This document shows, in pieces, positions 6,923 through 25,197 of a stretch of 32,000 nt of DNA. The stretch covers positions 2,190,001 to 2,222,000 of the forward strand of contig NC_008578.1 in NCBI RefSeq assembly GCF_000015025.1. Reading direction: 5' to 3'. Origin of the DNA: Acidothermus cellulolyticus 11B. Lineage in GTDB: Bacteria > Actinomycetota > Actinomycetes > Acidothermales > Acidothermaceae. Position numbers and translations under genes: made by a program. The stretch's first letter is position 1, and every line of letters begins with the position of its first letter. A model generated the notes under the pieces. The model did not search any database, had not been told where the DNA came from, and saw nothing but the letters and a program-made list of their open reading frames with translations.

Positions 6923-8452
6923 TCAATACGCACCGGACCCACGGACGACAGCAAAGGCGGTCTTCCACAAAATCATGAGATCCAACCAGAAGGACCAGTT
7001 CTCGACGTACCAGAGGTCAAGCCGCACGGAGGTCTGCCAATCGAGGTCAGACCGGCCGCTGATTTGCCAGAGCCCGGTGAGGCCCGGCTTGACGAGGAGG
7101 CGGCGTTTCGCTTCCGGCCCATACATGGCGACTTCGCGGGCCAACGGCGGCCGAGGACCGACGAGCGACATATGACCGAGAAGAACGTTGACCAATTGCG
7201 GCAATTCATCGAGGGAATACCGCCGGAGGAATCGGCCGACCGGCGTCACCCGCGGATCGTCGACGAGTTTGAACAGCACACCAGTAGCACCATGCTTGTT
7301 CTTGTCCAGCAACTCGGTGAGCCGGTGCTCAGCGTCGGCGTACATGGACCGGAATTTGTACATCCGGAAAGACTTGCCGCCCTTGCCGACCCGCTGCTGG
7401 CAGAAGAATGCACCGCCGTCGCTCGTTGCAACCACCGCAATCGCGACGGCGAGGAGAAGCGGGCTGAGAACGATAAGGGCGATCGCCGCCGCGAACCGGT
7501 CGAACGCTTCTTTCAAGACACGGCGGAATCCGTGAAATTCGGGGGCTTCCACGTGCAGGAGCGGCAAGCCCGCGAGCGGCCGGATGTGAATGCGTGGACC
7601 CGTGACATCCACGATGGTGGGAGCGACGATGAGATCGACTCCTGCCGCTTCGAGATCCCATCCGAGTTTTCGGAGCTTGGGTCCGCACAATTCCGGGCAC
7701 GGCAGGACGGCGACGGCCGCGGCGTCTACCGCGACGACCGCCCGCGTCACCGACTCCAGATCGTCGATGACCGGTACACCGGCGGCGTCCAGCCGATGGT
7801 GCGAACCGGCCTTCCCACCGGGAACGCAGGCACCGACGACGAAGAGACCCGCGTACGCTTCCCGCCGCATCGCCTCCGCAAGCTCAGCCGCAGTCGCATC
7901 GTGTCCGACAATCAGCACCCGTTGCAGGTGGCGGCCTTGCCGTCGCTGGAAATGCAGCCACTTTCGCGCACCGTAACGCGTCACGAGGGTCGCGGTCATC
8001 GCGCCGGGCACGGCAAAGAGAGCGACGCCGCGGCCGCCGAGCGAGGACGTCGCATACCCGGCGGTCGCAATGCACGCGGTGAGGCCGAGTCCCGCATGCA
8101 CGACGCGGCGATACTCCTCAGACCCCAGCCCGAGAAAGCGGGGTTCGTACGCGCGCAGCAACGCCAAGGTCGCCGGCCAGCCCAAGCCAAGCGCGACGAC
8201 CTGGAGCCAGGCTGCTCGATCGACCCGGCCGGCGTACCCGGATGAATACACGAGAACCGCAAGAGCCGCGATGACCCCTTCCGCTACGGCAAGCACCCGG
8301 CCATAGCGACGCAGGAAGCTGAGCCGGTCCCGGACGGCACGCCGGCTCCGCGTTGTACGCAACACCCGATCGGTCCGACGCGGAAGCGTCGAGACCTCAT
8401 CAAGAACGACCACGCCCCCCACCTTCCGAAACTGTGTGACGTCTTGCCTCAA
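6923..8452 (-). CDS. Polyprenyl-phosphate glycosyl-1-phosphate transferase (bacterial sugar transferase, WbaP/CpsE-type initiating enzyme)
   Basis: 509 aa. Hydrophobic N-terminal half. C-terminal domain carries the family signatures SLVGPRPPL, PGLTGLWQISGRSDL and LDLWYVENWSFWLDLMILWKT. The track start is a TTG at 8452; in-frame GTG codons lie just downstream, so the start is uncertain. Confidence 0.88.
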   Translation of the reverse strand: MRQDVTQFRKVGGVVVLDEVSTLPRRTDRVLRTTRSRRAVRDRLSFLRRYGRVLAVAEGVIAALAVLVYSSGYAGRVDRAAWLQVVALGLGWPATLALLRAYEPRFLGLGSEEYRRVVHAGLGLTACIATAGYATSSLGGRGVALFAVPGAMTATLVTRYGARKWLHFQRRQGRHLQRVLIVGHDATAAELAEAMRREAYAGLFVVGACVPGGKAGSHHRLDAAGVPVIDDLESVTRAVVAVDAAAVAVLPCPELCGPKLRKLGWDLEAAGVDLIVAPTIVDVTGPRIHIRPLAGLPLLHVEAPEFHGFRRVLKEAFDRFAAAIALIVLSPLLLAVAIAVVATSDGGAFFCQQRVGKGGKSFRMYKFRSMYADAEHRLTELLDKNKHGATGVLFKLVDDPRVTPVGRFLRRYSLDELPQLVNVLLGHMSLVGPRPPLAREVAMYGPEAKRRLLVKPGLTGLWQISGRSDLDWQTSVRLDLWYVENWSFWLDLMILWKTAFAVVRGSGAY

Positions 8453-16482: not shown

Positions 16483-16751
16483 CCGCGCCTCACTCCTCCC
16501 GCCTGATTAGCGTTTCCTGGCCTTCGGCCCGGCGGCTTGCGCAGCGGCGGTATCGCAGGGCCGCCGGCGTTGCCGCACGGCTGCGACCCCGGTACCGCCC
16601 GGCCCGGGCGCCCGCGGTCGGGAACACGACCGGCCCTGGCGCACGGTCGAGTCGGGCACACGACCGACCCTGCGCCCGCGTCTGACCACTCAGCCGCCGG
16701 GTCCTGGTCGGTGACACTGTGCCGGGATGTCGCCGCCCGCGCCGCTGCCTG

Positions 16752-16822
16752 CTCCCGGGGGAGGATTCGAACCCCCATTAATGGGACCAAAACCCACTGT
16801 CCTGCCCTTAGACGACCCGGGA
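16752..16822 (-). tRNA. tRNA-Gln (anticodon TTG)
   Basis: Folded by hand as a 71-nt cloverleaf on the minus strand. Acceptor TCCCGGG/CCCGGGA; D arm GTCT-AAGGGCA-GGAC; anticodon arm GTGGG-TTTTGGT-CCCAT (anticodon TTG); T arm GGGGG-TTCGAAT-CCTCC; discriminator G. CCA is not encoded. Confidence 0.9.
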
Positions 16823-18181: not shown

Positions 18182-18381
18182 CCCGCCCGCAGCGTCAGCG
18201 ACTCGTCCGCGGCGTCTCGTCCGCAGCCTCAGGGACCGTGACACTAACGCCCAGCGAATCACTCTCACGCACGCCCGCGGGATCGCCGAACGCACCGGCG
18301 ACACCGACGCCGAGCCGGATCACTCCAGGCCGACCGGATCACTCAGGCCGAGCAGCCGGGGCAAGTGCCGGGGCGGCGGAT
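18182..18381. repeat. Left copy of the direct repeat bracketing the CRISPR-Cas cassette
   Basis: 18182-18316 equals 25016-25150 (135 bp) with one mismatch (18199 c versus a). 18345-18381 equals 25161-25197 (37 bp, identical). The segment between the blocks differs: 28 nt here versus 10 nt in the right copy. Here it holds a tandem duplication of an 18-19-nt unit: ggatcactccaggccgacc / ggatcactcaggccgagc. Confidence 0.92.
18345..18381 (-). pseudogene. Orphan duplicated fragment of the last ~12 codons of the DUF885 gene
   Basis: The minus-strand reading ..PPPRHLPRLLGL.. is identical to the true C-terminus of the 25154..26788 gene. Homology stops abruptly at 18381 and there is no upstream gene body. 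Confidence 0.6.
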
Positions 18382-18608
18382 CGGTGGCGCTTGACCTGCC
18401 ATCGCCGCAACGACTGACACAGACTCAACCGGCTGGTTGAGATGCCGCGGGTCCGACATTGAGATGACCCGCCACACGTTCCGTCAAGGCGAGAGATTTG
18501 GATATTACGCAGCCTATGCCGTTACGAGCCGGCCGAATCGTTATCGGCCTCTTCCACTGGCTCCCAAGCGGTATTTCCTGGTCGTTTTGCGCGAAGAAGA
18601 CAGCTCTT

Positions 18609-20116
18609 TGTTTAAAGCCTGTCTCAATCCCCCGGCTAAAATGGGCGTACCGCGGAAACAGCTATCGCGCATGCTGGGGAGCCTGTCTCAATCCCCCGGC
18701 TAAAATGGCAGGCTTGACGGGCTCTGCTCGCGGGAAGCTGGGGAGCCTGTCTCAATCCCCCGGCTAAAATGGAAAGCACGGCGGGCTGCCGGCCTCACCC
18801 GCTGGGGAGCCTGTCTCAATCCCCCGGCTAAAATGGCGCGTCAGCCGCGGCACGATTACCGTACGCTGGGGAGCCTGTCTCAATCCCCCGGCTAAAATGG
18901 ATCTGGCCGAGTGCTCGTGGTCACGACGCTGGGGAGCCTGTCTCAATCCCCCGGCTAAAATGGCGACCAACGGAAGATCGCCGATATGATAGCTGGGGAG
19001 CCTGTCTCAATCCCCCGGCTAAAATGGCAATCATCCCACGGCTGCGCACCCCACGGCTGGGGAGCCTGTCTCAATCCCCCGGCTAAAATGGATCGGCTTG
19101 GTGCGGACCGGCGGGTTTTGCTGGGGAGCCTGTCTCAATCCCCCGGCTAAAATGGGCAGATTGATGCTAAAGCTGGGGAGATTGCTGGGGAGCCTGTCTC
19201 AATCCCCCGGCTAAAATGGGCAGATTGATGCTAAAGCTGGGGAGATTGCTGGGGAGCCTGTCTCAATCCCCCGGCTAAAATGGCTCCGGGTGGTATTCCC
19301 GCCGGGACCTGGCTGGGGAGCCTGTCTCAATCCCCCGGCTAAAATGGCCAACCGCGTACATGGTCGAGGTTTGCAGCTGGGGAGCCTGTCTCAATCCCCC
19401 GGCTAAAATGGGAAACTGTGAAAAACGGTGCCTTTGCCAGCTGGGGAGCCTGTCTCAATCCCCCGGCTAAAATGGTCCGCACCGTCGACTCGTACGCCTG
19501 CAGGCTGGGGAGCCTGTCTCAATCCCCCGGCTAAAATGGAGATCCTTGAGTGCGTGCCCGGTGCCGCGCTGGGGAGCCTGTCTCAATCCCCCGGCTAAAA
19601 TGGCGCCCGCGCCGCCTGAGCTGGTCGAATTGCTGGGGAGCCTGTCTCAATCCCCCGGCTAAAATGGTGCTCGAGCACCGGTAGCAGCTGTGTCTGCTGG
19701 GGAGCCTGTCTCAATCCCCCGGCTAAAATGGGATCCCACACCCAGCACCAGAACGCGCGGCTGGGGAGCCTGTCTCAATCCCCCGGCTAAAATGGCCACC
19801 CGGCCACCGTAGCGCGCGGCGGAGGCTGGGGAGCCTGTCTCAATCCCCCGGCTAAAATGGTCCATGTCAATTCAGTGGTGGCCGACCTGCTGGGGAGCCT
19901 GTCTCAATCCCCCGGCTAAAATGGCCGACCGAGCGAAACGCCCGGTGCGAGAGCTGGGGAGCCTGTCTCAATCCCCCGGCTAAAATGGTTGATGGCGTGC
20001 GATATTCCCCGGTGCGGCTGGGGAGCCTGTCTCAATCCCCCGGCTAAAATGGAGCGGGACTTGAACCCGCGACCAGCGGAGCTGGGGAGCCTGTCTCAAT
20101 CCCCCGGCTAAAATGG
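18609..20116 (+). CRISPR. CRISPR array: 24 x 36-bp repeats (GCTGGGGAGCCTGTCTCAATCCCCCGGCTAAAATGG), 23 spacers
   Basis: Repeat starts: 18609 (degenerate), 18673, 18737, 18801, 18865, 18928, 18992, 19056, 19120, 19184, 19248, 19312, 19376, 19440, 19504, 19568, 19632, 19696, 19760, 19825, 19889, 19953, 20017, 20081. Twenty-one spacers are 28 nt, one is 27 nt (18901-18927) and one is 29 nt (19796-19824). The strand is assigned from tracrRNA complementarity and the -10-like box in each repeat. Confidence 0.97.
18637..18642 (+). promoter_or_regulatory. -10-like hexamer TAAAAT inside the repeat (positions 29-34); recurs in all 24 repeats
   Basis: TAAAAT fits the TANNNT actinobacterial -10 consensus and ends 2 nt before each spacer. 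The coordinates give the first copy as an example. This placement is analogous to the repeat-embedded promoters established for Neisseria and Campylobacter type II-C arrays. Confidence 0.4.
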
Positions 20117-20121
20117 AGGAC

Positions 20122-20156
20122 GGCTGAGATCCCTGGGTTGACCTGGGATCTCAGCC
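20122..20156. terminator. Perfect 12-bp hairpin between the last repeat and the cas2 stop (possible bidirectional terminator)
   Basis: GGCTGAGATCCC (20122-20133) pairs with GGGATCTCAGCC (20145-20156) across an 11-nt loop. It is followed by TTGTTG on the plus strand and, after 8 nt, by a TTTT run on the minus strand. Confidence 0.5.
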
Positions 20157-20163
20157 TTGTTGA

Positions 20164-20490
20164 TCATGGAAAAATCGCTAGTTGCTGCGGTGGATCTTCC
20201 GGCGGAACGAGCCTTTCGCCAACGTAGCAGAGTGCGCGGGCCCATTCGTGATCTGAGACGGGGATCACCCGCAAGACGCCCCCCGGCGGGACGACCGCTC
20301 CGGCTGCGGATCCCACCCATCGGAACCCTGCCCCATTGATCATGTACTTCGCGTAGACACTGAGCTGAACTCGGCTGAAGCCAAGTTCCAGGAGATGATG
20401 TCGGTAGCGGTTCGCGTCCCGCCGCTGCTCCCTGGTCTGGGTAGGTAGATCGAAAGCTGCGATGGCCCACACCGGTTCGTCCTTAAGCAT
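20164..20490 (-). CDS. cas2: CRISPR-associated endoribonuclease Cas2
   Basis: 108 aa. Cas2-like N-terminus (WAIAAFDLPTQTREQRRDANRYRHHLLELGFSRVQLSVYAKY). Overlaps the cas1 end by 8 nt and lies directly next to the array. Confidence 0.93.
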   Translation of the reverse strand: MLKDEPVWAIAAFDLPTQTREQRRDANRYRHHLLELGFSRVQLSVYAKYMINGAGFRWVGSAAGAVVPPGGVLRVIPVSDHEWARALCYVGERLVPPEDPPQQLAIFP

Positions 20491-21370
20491 GCGACAGCTC
20501 CATGGCGGGTGGTCTCAGACTTCGTATCTCGCCCTCGACGTACCGACCGACCTGCTGGGCAAACCGCTCCACGGCTGTTCCCACGGTCGCTCCGCTCGCA
20601 TCAAATTGGTGATCAAGCACCGCTACAAGAAGGCGCTTAGTGGGACGGTCAAGACCCGATGCGCCCGCAGTGACGATCTCTATGACCGTCTTGTCCACCG
20701 CAGGTCGGAATGGTTCGATAAGATCGTCAACCAGCGTAAACGGATTATCGTGGCGCCGGTGCCAAAGGCCGAGGGACGGCGCGAGTCCCGCACCGACCAC
20801 CGCGCGAAGGCAACAACCACGTAAGATCGCATAGCCGTAGTCTAGGAGGCCGTTGACAACGTCACGTGCTCGCGGAACGCGACGAAAGTGCTTGTCCTGA
20901 AACAAGCGAGCCCAATACACGCGCGCGGCAGCCCCTTCAGCATTGCTTGCATCACCTGATCGAACCTGCGCCGCGAGTCGCTCCAGTTGCGCCACACCGT
21001 CTCGGCGAAGCGCCCGTAGCACAGCGGCCTGATTGCGGATCTTTGTCTTCACGATATTCATCCATGCGTTCTTTTGCCTAGGCAACGAAAGCTCCGCCTG
21101 CGCGCGATGACGAGCCGCCACCCGGTTGTGAGTCGACCACGGCAATGTAGCGGCTACCGGAACACCCCGCCAGTCGCAGTGCACCACGCCTACCCCGAAC
21201 GCCGCAGCGCGGTCAATAACGCTGCCGTGCAGGGAGACGTACGGCCCCGTAAGCATCATCGCGACGTCAACCAGCGGCACCCGCTCGTCACCGACAAGAA
21301 GTGCCCCTTGAGCCGCATGCACCTCACCGGACAGTTCGGACAGATCCACGACACGCCACGGTCCTGTCAT
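20483..21370 (-). CDS. cas1: CRISPR-associated integrase Cas1 (type II)
   Basis: Track ORF 20483..21520 trimmed to the ATG at 21370 (MTGPWRVVDLSEL...), which forms an ATGA overlap with the cas9 stop. Conserved segments: NAEGAAARVYW, LLDYGYAILRG, GLWHRRHDNPFTLVDDLIEPFRP (catalytic His and acidic residues). Confidence 0.95.
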   Translation of the reverse strand: MTGPWRVVDLSELSGEVHAAQGALLVGDERVPLVDVAMMLTGPYVSLHGSVIDRAAAFGVGVVHCDWRGVPVAATLPWSTHNRVAARHRAQAELSLPRQKNAWMNIVKTKIRNQAAVLRALRRDGVAQLERLAAQVRSGDASNAEGAAARVYWARLFQDKHFRRVPRARDVVNGLLDYGYAILRGCCLRAVVGAGLAPSLGLWHRRHDNPFTLVDDLIEPFRPAVDKTVIEIVTAGASGLDRPTKRLLVAVLDHQFDASGATVGTAVERFAQQVGRYVEGEIRSLRPPAMELSHA

Positions 21371-24300
21371 GGTGTACCGCCGCTCCAGGGATCTGCGCTC
21401 CAAGGCCGCCACGAGTACGGGAGATGACCCCGGCGCCACCGAGGTTGACCAAGCGCAGTTCGTCGGATCACCGTAAGGCCAGGGTGGCACAAGACCTTTG
21501 CGACGGTCGCCCGCCAACACCGCGGGAAGAATTGTGCGAGAATCTCCCCGGCTTCAGTCAAGGTGTCGGGACGATCGCTTCTCTCCGTGCGGAGAACCTC
21601 AGCTTGTTCCGCGGAGAGAAACGCCGGCTTAAGATTGATCCTTTTATCATCCTCAAAGCCTGTGACGACCCAATGCCGCTCCGGGAAGTACTTCAGGAAC
21701 ATACTTAAATCCCCGGCTGCCGTTGTCACACCTTCCGGGCCGAAATCCAACTCGTCTCCGGGGACAAGCCAGCCAACCTGTTTCGCATCGCCAGACTCCA
21801 CCGCCTTCACTAACGCGATGCTGGCATAGCGCCATGCCGGCGTCCACGGCGGCAACTCAGCAGTAAAGACGTCCACGCCGTCACGAAGAAGGCCAGCAAC
21901 AGCCAAGTCCGCAAGTGAAACACGCAGCAGAGCAAAGGACGGGGAATGACTGCTGCCCCAGCGGAAGACGCGGGCGTGGTGAAAAGATGCAATGTACGCC
22001 GCACCGCCGCGCACCCGTATCGAGCCTCGATCATCCGGGAACAGCTTTACCCGATCGCGAGGACCCAAGACCCTATCAGAAAGGACGATATGCCGGTTCT
22101 CGTCAGCGGGTAGCACGTCTTCACTAGGGCTCACCTTGAGGAATCGACCACCAGGATCGGTAAGGGCGAGGAAGGCGGCATAAACCTCAGGCTCGACGAT
22201 GCGTCGTAGCTCTGCTCCTTTCCACGCAGCTCCCACCGTGTGCTCCGAGAAGGCGCGAAGTGTTTCCTCATGCAGCGCGCCGGTCGGCCTCAGTCGCAAC
22301 GGTGCGGCCACGGCGATACTGTCACGGGCGGCGGTACTAATGAGTAAGTCGCCTAGACCCGAGCAGGACTCCTTCCATTGACGATAAGCTGGCGACTGAG
22401 GCTCCTCTGTTGAATGCCGGTTCACATCGCTAGGCCGACGCCAGAACTCCGCTGAGACGCGACGACTCCGCGCGTCGGCCAAGGTCTTCGCGACGCCCGG
22501 AGTCAGCGTTGTGAGCACAACCGCGTCCACGGCATGGTGCCGACGATCGAGCCGCTTCGTGCTCGTTGACTGAGCAAAAATTGCAACACGGGAGAAGAGC
22601 CTCTCGATCGAGATATCGAGCCAGCGTCTCGCTTCGGCGGTCACGCCACCGCGGAAAACCGCTACCTGAGCTACTCCGTTCTTTTCGCCGTAACTGAGCA
22701 GGCGGTCCCTTAGCGCGACAGCTGCGTAGCCGGTGGATTCAATGCTTTGAATCACTTCGGGATCGGAGGTGCGCCTTTTGAGGCGGGCGACGACAGACTT
22801 CTTGTACCGAGAGAACTCGTCGCGAGTCCAGTACATGTTGCCTGAGTATTTCAGCTTTTGGACACGATCGATCACGTCGCGAAGCTGTACTCTATTACTT
22901 GTCTCAGCCCACGACGCAAAGGGACGTCGACCTTTTTCCTTGTTGCACGCTCCGCAGGTAATCGCGAGATTCTCATGTCTGTTCGAGCCGCCGTCCGTAC
23001 GCGGGACAATGTGGTCAAGCTCCGAATTCTCCCAGCTAATGGGCGCGCCGCAGTACATGCAATGGCAGTCGTAGAGTTCGAGCAGCCGCGCACGGACCAA
23101 ATCAGCTGGAGACGGATCACTAAGGCCGGAGGCGCGAAGTTCAGCGCGGATTCGATCGTTTGCTTTCCGATGGGCACGACGGGCCGCTTCTTCTTCCGCC
23201 TGTCGTTCCCTTGACTCGCTGGCTCCCCGTGCCAACTCAACGACGATACTCTGGGGTGGACCCCAGCGCATCGTGGCTGACGAAAGAAACTTCCTCAGAA
23301 TCGCGAGATTGCGGTCCACCACCGGATGTCCAGTCGCTTCGTGCAACGCCGGTAGCGGCGGGCGCCAGTTGTCGTCAACCCCGAAACACGTTTTTCGAGC
23401 ATTATGCACGTCAACACCGTCATCCCGCATAACCCGTGTCAAACCAGACAAGGTCAGCCGACTATACGCGACGCGGCCGCTTGGTAGAGCCAGGCCCTCA
23501 AGCGCCTCGAGCTCCGCGTCCGGTAGGTGCACAAGGAGCTCTTGCTCTTCCTCGCCGGCAATAGAGTTGTCGGCCAAGGCGGCCACAAGATCTGAACGCG
23601 ACGTGCGATCCTGCTCCTGCCACCATTGAGCGAAGGTTGGAATCTTACGCCGGTTTTTAGCGATAAACTCAGCAATACGGGCCGACGTCTCGTCGAACGG
23701 AGCGAACTGTGAATATGCGAGCGACGACGGCCCGTCTTCTTCCGGCACGCTCGTCAGGTCGCTTTCATTCGGCAACTTAAGAATCTCCAGCGCAATATCT
23801 GACCACGTGAGGCTACGCTCGGTTTGAGCAAGCAACGCTTCGATCACCGCGTTGCGCTCTTCAAGGGAAAGCGGCCGTGAACCAGAGCCATCACGTATCC
23901 GCAGGTTAGCCACCGCCGCAACGATGCGATACTCCTGAAACTCCAGACACGCGCGTGACGCGCGAAGCTGACTGGGGTCAAGGGGATCGCGGCCGATGCG
24001 CTCTGCCGGGACACTTGGCCGCTTCTGACAGAACACCGCGTCGATGACGTTTGACACGACATCCTCCGGCAGCCCCTGCACATCGGCAATGCACCGCAAT
24101 TCCCAGAGCACATCCTCCTGGCGAAGACGCGTTTCAAAGGCAGTTGCGTTACTTAACTCGGCGCGGCGTCCGGCGGACTGTTGCGTTGGATTCAGCCGAA
24201 TCCCCGGTGCGCGCTGAAGCAGGTAGCCGGCCCACTGACCAACCGTCCCCGGCTCGAGCGACACGGAGTACCGGGCTTCCAGACTCTCCCGAGTGCGCTC

Positions 24301-24783
24301 CCACGAGTCGCTAGGCTGCGGTAGATTTTTGAGGTCTTTAATGGTCGTCCACGGGTTCCGCCATCCCCGGTGACGTGCCATGTGGCTCACCGCGTATCCA
24401 AGCAGGCGGCGCCGCTCGGTCTCATCGACGACGTATTCCTCGGCGAGCCGCTTACGAGCAAGCCAAGCGTCGACTGGCGACACGTTCTTGTCCGGCAACG
24501 GCGTCCAGCCGAGCTCCGAAAGAAGCATGTCGAGATCACGTAGGCGTGCGCGACGAAAGCGTCGCAGCCGGCGAGCACGGCGCGCCATGCCTCTCAGAGC
24601 CAGCCGACTCGCTCCCGATCTTTCATCCCCGACGCCGCCGTCATGTATCCACGACACTGCGGCCAAGATCTCTTTCGGCTTGTCTTCCTCATAGGAAACC
24701 GCCGCGAGGCCGATTGACCGCTCGCCTACGTCGACGCCCAGCCGCCAGGTGACAGGCACCGTCCCCACCTCAGAACCACCCAT
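21367..24783 (-). CDS. cas9: Cas9 endonuclease, type II-C, Actinomyces naeslundii-like architecture (about 1138 aa)
   Basis: RuvC-I WRLGVDVGERSIGLAAV; Arg-rich bridge helix RRARRLRRFRRARLRDL; RuvC-II IVVELARG; HNH CMYCGAPISWENSELDHIVPR...NLAITCGACNKEKG; RuvC-III RRHHAVDAVVL. Blocks I recall from AnaCas9: ARHRGWRNPW, VANLRI, GRVAYSR, FGVDDNW, HHARVFR. Start placed at the ATG at 24783 (GAGGAG upstream). The track ORF extends to 24861. Confidence 0.96.
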   Translation of the reverse strand: MGGSEVGTVPVTWRLGVDVGERSIGLAAVSYEEDKPKEILAAVSWIHDGGVGDERSGASRLALRGMARRARRLRRFRRARLRDLDMLLSELGWTPLPDKNVSPVDAWLARKRLAEEYVVDETERRRLLGYAVSHMARHRGWRNPWTTIKDLKNLPQPSDSWERTRESLEARYSVSLEPGTVGQWAGYLLQRAPGIRLNPTQQSAGRRAELSNATAFETRLRQEDVLWELRCIADVQGLPEDVVSNVIDAVFCQKRPSVPAERIGRDPLDPSQLRASRACLEFQEYRIVAAVANLRIRDGSGSRPLSLEERNAVIEALLAQTERSLTWSDIALEILKLPNESDLTSVPEEDGPSSLAYSQFAPFDETSARIAEFIAKNRRKIPTFAQWWQEQDRTSRSDLVAALADNSIAGEEEQELLVHLPDAELEALEGLALPSGRVAYSRLTLSGLTRVMRDDGVDVHNARKTCFGVDDNWRPPLPALHEATGHPVVDRNLAILRKFLSSATMRWGPPQSIVVELARGASESRERQAEEEAARRAHRKANDRIRAELRASGLSDPSPADLVRARLLELYDCHCMYCGAPISWENSELDHIVPRTDGGSNRHENLAITCGACNKEKGRRPFASWAETSNRVQLRDVIDRVQKLKYSGNMYWTRDEFSRYKKSVVARLKRRTSDPEVIQSIESTGYAAVALRDRLLSYGEKNGVAQVAVFRGGVTAEARRWLDISIERLFSRVAIFAQSTSTKRLDRRHHAVDAVVLTTLTPGVAKTLADARSRRVSAEFWRRPSDVNRHSTEEPQSPAYRQWKESCSGLGDLLISTAARDSIAVAAPLRLRPTGALHEETLRAFSEHTVGAAWKGAELRRIVEPEVYAAFLALTDPGGRFLKVSPSEDVLPADENRHIVLSDRVLGPRDRVKLFPDDRGSIRVRGGAAYIASFHHARVFRWGSSHSPSFALLRVSLADLAVAGLLRDGVDVFTAELPPWTPAWRYASIALVKAVESGDAKQVGWLVPGDELDFGPEGVTTAAGDLSMFLKYFPERHWVVTGFEDDKRINLKPAFLSAEQAEVLRTERSDRPDTLTEAGEILAQFFPRCWRATVAKVLCHPGLTVIRRTALGQPRWRRGHLPYSWRPWSADPWSGGTP

Positions 24784-24912
24784 GGTCGGATCAGCTCCTC
24801 GTCCGTACTCAACGCCTTTGATGATCAGTTGCAAGCTCACGATAGCGACATGGACCGACATAATGCACGGATTTTTTGAGACGCAATACCTTGCGATCAG
24901 AGCGGCGCGATG

Positions 24913-24918
24913 TATACT
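24913..24918 (+). promoter_or_regulatory. -10 hexamer TATACT for the predicted tracrRNA
   Basis: TATACT lies 6-8 nt upstream of the first anti-repeat nucleotide, in the cas9-upstream intergenic region and divergent from cas9. Confidence 0.45.
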
Positions 24919-24922
24919 CGCA

Positions 24923-24999
24923 GCGAGACAGGCTACCTAGCAAGACCCCTTCGTGGGGTCGCATTCTTCACCCCCTCGCAGCAGCGAGGGGGTTCGTTT
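24923..24999 (+). ncRNA. Predicted tracrRNA (anti-repeat, nexus hairpin, terminator hairpin)
   Basis: 24925-24941 (GAGACAGGCTACCTAGC) is complementary to repeat positions 1-17: 15 Watson-Crick pairs, 1 G-U and 1 mismatch. Next come AAG and the hairpin GACCCC-TTCGT-GGGGTC (24944-24960), a 10-nt linker, and the hairpin CCCCCTCGC-AGCA-GCGAGGGGG (24971-24992) with a TTCGTTT tail. The ends are approximate. Confidence 0.8.
24971..24999 (+). terminator. Intrinsic terminator of the tracrRNA
   Basis: 9-bp GC-rich stem with a 4-nt loop, immediately followed by the T-rich tract TTCGTTT. Confidence 0.7.
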
Positions 25000-25015
25000 A
25001 TGATCACGGATGCCA

Positions 25016-25197
25016 CCCGCCCGCAGCGTCAGAGACTCGTCCGCGGCGTCTCGTCCGCAGCCTCAGGGACCGTGACACTAACGCCCAGCGAATCACTCTC
25101 ACGCACGCCCGCGGGATCGCCGAACGCACCGGCGACACCGACGCCGAGCCAGCTCACGCCAGGCCGAGCAGCCGGGGCAAGTGCCGGGGCGGCGGAT
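25016..25197. repeat. Right copy of the direct repeat bracketing the CRISPR-Cas cassette (includes the genuine 3' end of the DUF885 gene)
   Basis: See the left copy for the alignment. This copy holds the real stop codon (25154-25156) and the last ~14 codons of the 25154..26788 gene, plus about 138 bp of downstream sequence. Confidence 0.92.

Follow-up and report, generated by a model that had tools for sequence, protein, structure and literature searches.

The native type II-C CRISPR-Cas9 locus of Acidothermus cellulolyticus 11B and its effector AceCas9

A stretch of 32,000 nucleotides from Acidothermus cellulolyticus 11B (contig NC_008578.1, positions 2,190,001 to 2,222,000 of the forward strand; hereafter the window, whose own numbering is used throughout) contains a CRISPR-Cas9 locus. 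It is almost certainly the native type II-C locus that encodes, as its effector, the thermostable A. cellulolyticus enzyme AceCas9; we made this assignment because the encoded protein matches AceCas9 chains in the Protein Data Bank (PDB) and because the scaffold of the published single-guide RNA (sgRNA) matches the window. The protospacer-adjacent motif (PAM), the guide RNA and the structures of this Cas9 have been published before, and the system is already known. An earlier reading of the same DNA, made from the sequence only, had taken the PAM and guide requirements to be unknown, which was wrong: the PAM of AceCas9 is 5'-NNNCC-3' and its sgRNA has been reported, and both the protein and the scaffold match.

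The protein was identified by a search against solved structures. Residues 27-1164 of the cas9 open reading frame (ORF) matched the full 1138-residue chain common to 8D2K, 8D2L, 8D2N-Q and 9AR5, with 2584 bits, and the ORF also matched the HNH-deleted constructs 6WBR and 6WC0. Compared with 8D2K, the window protein was identical at every displayed residue, i.e. 1-931 and 939-1138 of 1138, residues 932-938 not being displayed; the C-terminal 200 residues were compared in a separate alignment. According to the data availability statements, 6WBR and 6WC0 (PMC7733487) and 8D2K-8D2Q (PMC10861241) are AceCas9 of A. cellulolyticus, a type II-C enzyme of 1138 amino acids (PMC7733487). The RNA led to the same enzyme. 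The published transcription template of the sgRNA consists of the guide, GCTGGGGAGCCT, a GAAA loop and a 66-nt scaffold (PMC7733487 supplement). In the window, the plus-strand array repeat has GCTGGGGAGCCT as its 5' end, and the 66-nt scaffold was matched exactly by positions 24930-24995, also on the plus strand. The locus thus has the catalytic and PAM-contact residues, the tracrRNA-derived scaffold (tracrRNA, trans-activating CRISPR RNA) and the repeat 5' end of AceCas9, with no difference in the displayed alignments. What the window adds to the cited AceCas9 papers is native context, namely the array content, the strand arrangement and the flanking direct repeats.

The function of AceCas9 is well documented. 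In a 7N plasmid library, 5'-NNNCC-3' was the sole motif significantly depleted, NNNAC being weak, and cleavage assays also support this PAM; it is contacted by Glu1044, Arg1088 and Arg1091, and 5-methylation on the first PAM cytosine blocks cleavage (PMC7733487). The sgRNA, which was crystallised with a guide of 20 nt, further has a repeat:anti-repeat stem of 12 bp, a pair of connecting loops and two stem-loops, and AceCas9 cleaves DNA in vitro and in cells (PMC7733487). The HNH domain cuts the target strand, using one metal on Asp590 and Asn614 and His591 as the general base, and the RuvC domain cuts the non-target strand with two metals on Asp18, Glu516 and His750 (PMC10861241). In an editing trial in Clostridium thermocellum with 24-nt guides, 37% of cells were killed. 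Loaded with a guide that is joined by fusion or by pairing to the repeat:anti-repeat scaffold, this same Cas9 has been shown in the literature to find DNA bearing a 5'-NNNCC-3' PAM. The comparison with profile hidden Markov models, the PAM-depletion experiment and the in vitro cleavage assay that the sequence-only reading had proposed are all in print for this very protein.

The residues named in those studies were all found in the window protein. The RuvC residues D18 (in GVDVG), E516 (VVELAR) and H750 with D753 (HHAVDA) were intact, as were the HNH residues D590 and H591 (DHIVP), followed by N605 and N614. The PAM-contact residues E1044, R1088 and R1091 were also present. The order of Pfam domains was Cas9_a, HNH, RuvC_III, Cas9 beta-hairpin, Cas9_Topo and Cas9_C, and the protein scored 195 bits against the NCBIfam Cas9 model TIGR01865, the cutoff of which is 100. 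The cas9 ORF can be read as 1164 codons (21367-24861). The real start is Met27 at 24783, with GAGGAG just upstream, and this start gives the protein of 1138 residues; it replaces the upstream ATG at 24861 of the first reading. We also observed the long form, which begins at that in-frame ATG, among the genes called on contigs of ENA and Logan (L014, L015).

The three cas genes are contiguous and overlapping on the minus strand (Table 1). Direct reading of the sequence showed an ATGA common to the cas9 stop and the cas1 start, and an 8-nt overlap, ATGCTTAA, between the end of cas1 and the start of cas2. In Pfam, the three ORFs matched only the Cas9, Cas1 and Cas2 families, and a scan of 30 large ORFs flanking them in the window gave no match to a Csn2 or Cas4 family. 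No fourth gene was seen among the ORFs scanned, and the operon is thus minimal. A pirin gene adjoins the cassette on one side and a DUF885 gene on the other. In these respects, the sequence-only reading was accurate: the cas9-cas1-cas2 layout without csn2 or cas4 agrees with the Pfam and NCBIfam assignments, all the nuclease motifs it listed (GVDVG, VVELAR, DHIVP...N and HHAVDA) could be located, translational coupling by ATGA and 8-nt overlaps was seen in the letters, and the high-GC background corresponds to a window GC of 65-67%.

Table 1. Features of the AceCas9 locus and its borders (window coordinates).
Feature	Position	Strand	Basis and remarks
cas9 (AceCas9, 1138 aa)	21367-24783	-	Pfam, NCBIfam, PDB-chain match
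cas1 (295 aa, type II Cas1)	20483-21370	-	TIGR03639, 215 bits, E=9e-64
cas2 (108 aa)	20164-20490	-	Pfam Cas2, NCBIfam TIGR01573
tracrRNA	24925-~25001	+	anti-repeat, 66-nt scaffold match, promoter, terminator, fold; divergent from cas9
Putative tracrRNA promoter, sigma-70-like (TTGCGA-16 nt-TATACT)	24891-24918	+	consensus match only; 1 site found vs 0.0 expected (shuffles)
CRISPR array (degenerate repeat, then 23 perfect 36-nt repeats; 23 spacers)	18609-20116	+ (crRNA sense)	sequence, published sgRNA
Hairpin, 12-bp perfect stem	20122-20156	both	folds at -29 and -27 kcal/mol on the two strands; between cas2 stop and first repeat
Direct-repeat copy A	18182-18381	+	pirin side; pseudo-copy of DUF885 3' end
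Direct-repeat copy B	25016-25197	+	DUF885 side; overlaps last ~14 codons and stop of DUF885

The locus showed features of a type II-C system, i.e. a Cas9 with RuvC and HNH domains, cas1, cas2 and a tracrRNA, and the scanned ORFs included neither csn2 nor cas4; a minimal operon lacking a fourth gene is how II-C has been defined (PMC3737331), and the primary literature classes AceCas9 accordingly (PMC7733487, PMC10861241). The closest solved relatives are likewise II-C enzymes. AnaCas9 of Actinomyces naeslundii (4OGC/4OGE) is homologous over its full length (query 40-1151 to chain 13-1098, 494 bits, E=6e-147 for 4OGC), but its sequence is clearly diverged, 494 bits comparing with 2584 bits for the self match, and it is a separate enzyme; the likeness to AnaCas9 in spite of a different sequence had been anticipated by eye. 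The second-closest is CdCas9 of Corynebacterium diphtheriae (6JOO, 404 bits, E=9e-120), which is also diverged in sequence. Its host is an actinobacterium in which the cas9-cas1-cas2 operon is minimal, and the PAM of CdCas9 differs from that of AceCas9. The alternative that the system is of subtype II-A or II-B, or of a new subtype with an overlooked fourth gene, has its sole basis in the unusually short anti-repeat of 17 nt, which was missed in an early survey. We consider this extremely unlikely, given that the cas ORFs and the 30 flanking ORFs yielded no Csn2 or Cas4, that the cassette is adjoined directly by the pirin and DUF885 genes, and that both the nearest solved relatives and the literature point to II-C.

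The tracrRNA lies upstream of cas9 (Table 1). Its order is anti-repeat, stem-loop 1, stem-loop 2/terminator (24970-24993) and then a U-rich tail, TCGTTTAT. Apart from the array, the window had a single match to the 17 nt with which the repeat starts, namely the anti-repeat at 24925-24941, on the opposite strand and with two mismatches; ~0.16 such matches were expected by chance. Transcription from the sigma-70-like promoter, divergent from cas9, would start at ~24924-24926. The native repeat:anti-repeat duplex has 17 bp, including one G.U pair and one G.A mismatch, and the CRISPR RNA (crRNA) would pair with the tracrRNA over these 17 bp only. As reported by Chylinski et al. in 2013, A. cellulolyticus was among the loci with no detectable anti-repeat (PMC3737331); it was probably missed because the native duplex is that short and contains the G.U and G.A positions. 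Duplex energy did not single out the anti-repeat in this GC-rich window either, several unrelated 40-mers scoring better, and we identified it from the contiguous 17-nt match and from the identity to the published scaffold. At gathering thresholds, Rfam returned tRNA-Gln only and no tracrRNA family. The matching tracrRNA claimed by the sequence-only reading is nevertheless present, with a scaffold identical to that of the published sgRNA.

The array is located downstream of cas2, beyond the coordinates covered by the earlier note (20164-24999). A single degenerate repeat (18609-18644) precedes 23 copies of the perfect repeat, GCTGGGGAGCCTGTCTCAATCCCCCGGCTAAAATGG, at 18673-20116, and each of the 23 spacers has 27-29 nt, in keeping with the large and uniform array described before. 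The crRNA sense is the plus strand, since the published sgRNA has the guide followed by GCTGGGGAGCCT. The first reading is to be corrected here, as the plus strand encodes both crRNA and tracrRNA and the cas operon lies on the other strand. The array would be transcribed towards cas2, convergently with cas9-cas1-cas2. A -10-like TAAAAT occupies positions 29-34 of each repeat on the crRNA sense strand, two bases before the 3' end, which suggests repeat-internal promoters of the Neisseria/Campylobacter type. Transcription would then probably start at the TAAAAT box of each repeat, as in the type II-C loci of Neisseria and Campylobacter, and crRNAs may begin inside each spacer. The hairpin between cas2 and the array lies in a leader-like region beside the acquisition end and is probably a terminator between the cas and array transcripts, which would converge there.

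Repeats of Neisseria meningitidis carry a promoter -10 box at their 3' end. In N. meningitidis and Campylobacter jejuni, array and cas operon are on opposite strands, with the degenerate repeat at the 'wrong' (transcription-upstream) end (PMC3737331), and the window has the same layout. The two systems differ from it in other respects: their Cas9 proteins are only distantly similar (E ~1e-12), and in the window the tracrRNA is upstream of cas9 and divergent from it, with a duplex of only 17 bp.

Two sets of spacers had unusual sequences. Spacers 9 (19156-19183) and 10 (19220-19247) are identical, GCAGATTGATGCTAAAGCTGGGGAGATT, and contain GCTAAAGCTGGGGAG, which resembles the 3' end of the repeat fused to its 5' end; they may reflect a duplication or an array-derived spacer. 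Spacer 23 (20053-20080), the cas2-proximal one, corresponds in reverse complement to positions 39-66 of a tRNA (3' half), spanning the 3' strand of the anticodon stem, the variable loop, the T-arm and the first acceptor base. In blastn against phages, it matched tRNA regions of mycobacteriophages at 26 of 28 nt. A target tRNA gene with an NNNCC PAM would require a GGN anticodon. There was no evidence that spacer 23 is self-targeting: it had no exact match in genome contigs, and its 22-nt PAM-proximal part was absent from viral contigs.

Identical or near-identical cas genes occur in many public assemblies, and some of these allowed a comparison of array ends. A metagenomic contig 98.8% identical to the window (L001, positions 1-290) shares the degenerate repeat and the first two spacers with it, but the two spacers after these differ. 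At the other end, the cas2-proximal spacer differs from window spacer 23 both in a sequence 99.7% identical (L014/L023, positions 1-105) and in a near-identical one (L020, positions 1-45). The distal end of the array is ancestral and the cas2-proximal end turns over; because distal spacers are common to strains and cas2-proximal ones differ, spacer acquisition appears to be ongoing. Cas1-Cas2 would insert new spacers, 28 nt long, at the end next to cas2, the downstream one relative to crRNA transcription.

Some points weigh against this account of the locus. A scan of genome contigs with the Cas9 protein returned 50 pattern matches, none of them from a related Cas9. Spacers were searched against collections of phages, plasmids, viral contigs and genomes, as proposed earlier for inferring the PAM; none of those tested had a natural protospacer there, and the PAM could not be derived in this way. 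The NNNCC PAM and native immunity therefore stand without corroboration from natural targets. With the whole array as the blastn query against phages and plasmids (E<=10), we obtained only matches at chance level or the tRNA-like 26/28 ones. The 22-nt PAM-proximal ends of spacers 9/10, 13, 20, 21 and 22 had no match in viral contigs, and neither had those of one variant spacer each from L014 and L001. Within the window itself, no spacer had a match beyond the array when up to 6 mismatches were allowed. Moreover, the repeat-internal promoters and the ends of crRNA and tracrRNA are predicted from the letters of the window.

The array, cas2, cas1, cas9 and the tracrRNA are bracketed by a direct repeat of 182-200 nt (Table 1). 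Copies A and B have a core of 152 nt in common, at 97% identity, and copy A contains 18 additional nt. Since copy B overlaps the 3' end and stop codon of DUF885, copy A is the duplicated gene-end fragment, and the pair looks like an insertion or recombination scar. The cassette between the copies (18382-25015) has 60.7% GC, compared with 66-67% in the flanks, and GC3 (GC at third codon positions) is 0.63-0.66 in the cas genes vs 0.74-0.82 in neighbouring genes; this composition points to horizontal acquisition.

In one Logan contig of 39 kb, SRR11077874_774 (L004/L026), DUF885 is joined to pirin through a single hybrid repeat and the cassette is missing. Positions 7234-7385 of that contig correspond to window 18333..18182 joined to 25167..25016, and its flanks are identical to the window except for the A/B differences within the repeat. 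It was 1 of the 14 contigs carrying DUF885, and it comes from an assembly built with k=31; it represents either a variant that lost the cassette precisely by recombination or a collapse of that assembly. No mention of the SRR110778xx runs was found in the literature searched. In strains 0.3-1.2% diverged from the window, the cassette junction is kept, at the pirin end in L001 and at the DUF885 end in L014. Provided that the join in SRR11077874_774 is real, it would therefore represent a secondary deletion through recombination between the repeats. We thus put forward, tentatively and at slightly less than even chances, that the cassette, lying within a direct duplication of the DUF885 3' end and the intergenic region that follows it, was acquired horizontally, that homologous recombination between the two copies deletes it precisely, and that Cas9-plus and Cas9-minus cells coexist in natural or cultured populations.

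The same observations can be turned into a different account, in which the enzyme works when reconstituted but the native locus is silent or confers no immunity, being a recently acquired, dispensable cassette that is being lost. The absence of protospacers from all four kinds of collection, the foreign GC3, the bracketing repeats and the one contig in which the entire cassette is missing between flanks identical to those of the window would all fit. We nevertheless judge it improbable, as all three genes are intact, with translational coupling, 23 of the repeats are perfect, and the tracrRNA comes with a predicted promoter and terminator. In addition, cas2-proximal spacers differ among strains that are 99.7-100% identical whereas distal ones are common even with the 98.8% strain, which argues for recent acquisition of spacers in nature. 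What the window holds is a real type II-C system, both complete and functional. The sequence-only reading had likewise argued for a complete working system and not a relic, and its intact parts, together with the published cleavage in vitro and in cells, bear this out.

The neighbours of the locus are housekeeping genes of an actinobacterial style (pth, L25, prs, glmU, tRNA-Gln, pirin, DUF885 and otsA), and these, like the GC of 65-67%, agree with A. cellulolyticus as the source. We also observed, in the region of 16599-16680 and 16751-16822, a 34-nt tandem repeat of 2.6 copies within a stretch of 73% GC. It adjoins the tRNA-Gln(TTG) gene, just past the glmU start, and is unrelated to the CRISPR locus.

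AceCas9 has already been reconstituted, its PAM and methylation sensitivity have been defined, its structures are available in at least eight states, and editing with it in a thermophile has been partially active. As a discovery, the AceCas9 locus hence carries no weight, and the use of the check was to halt a rediscovery. The details of its native context, i.e. the strand layout, the short anti-repeat, the spacer turnover, the direct repeats and the possible deletion, are of incremental interest for how Cas9 loci are gained, lost and expressed. If precise deletion between the direct repeats is confirmed, it would amount to a simple loss switch for a Cas9 system.

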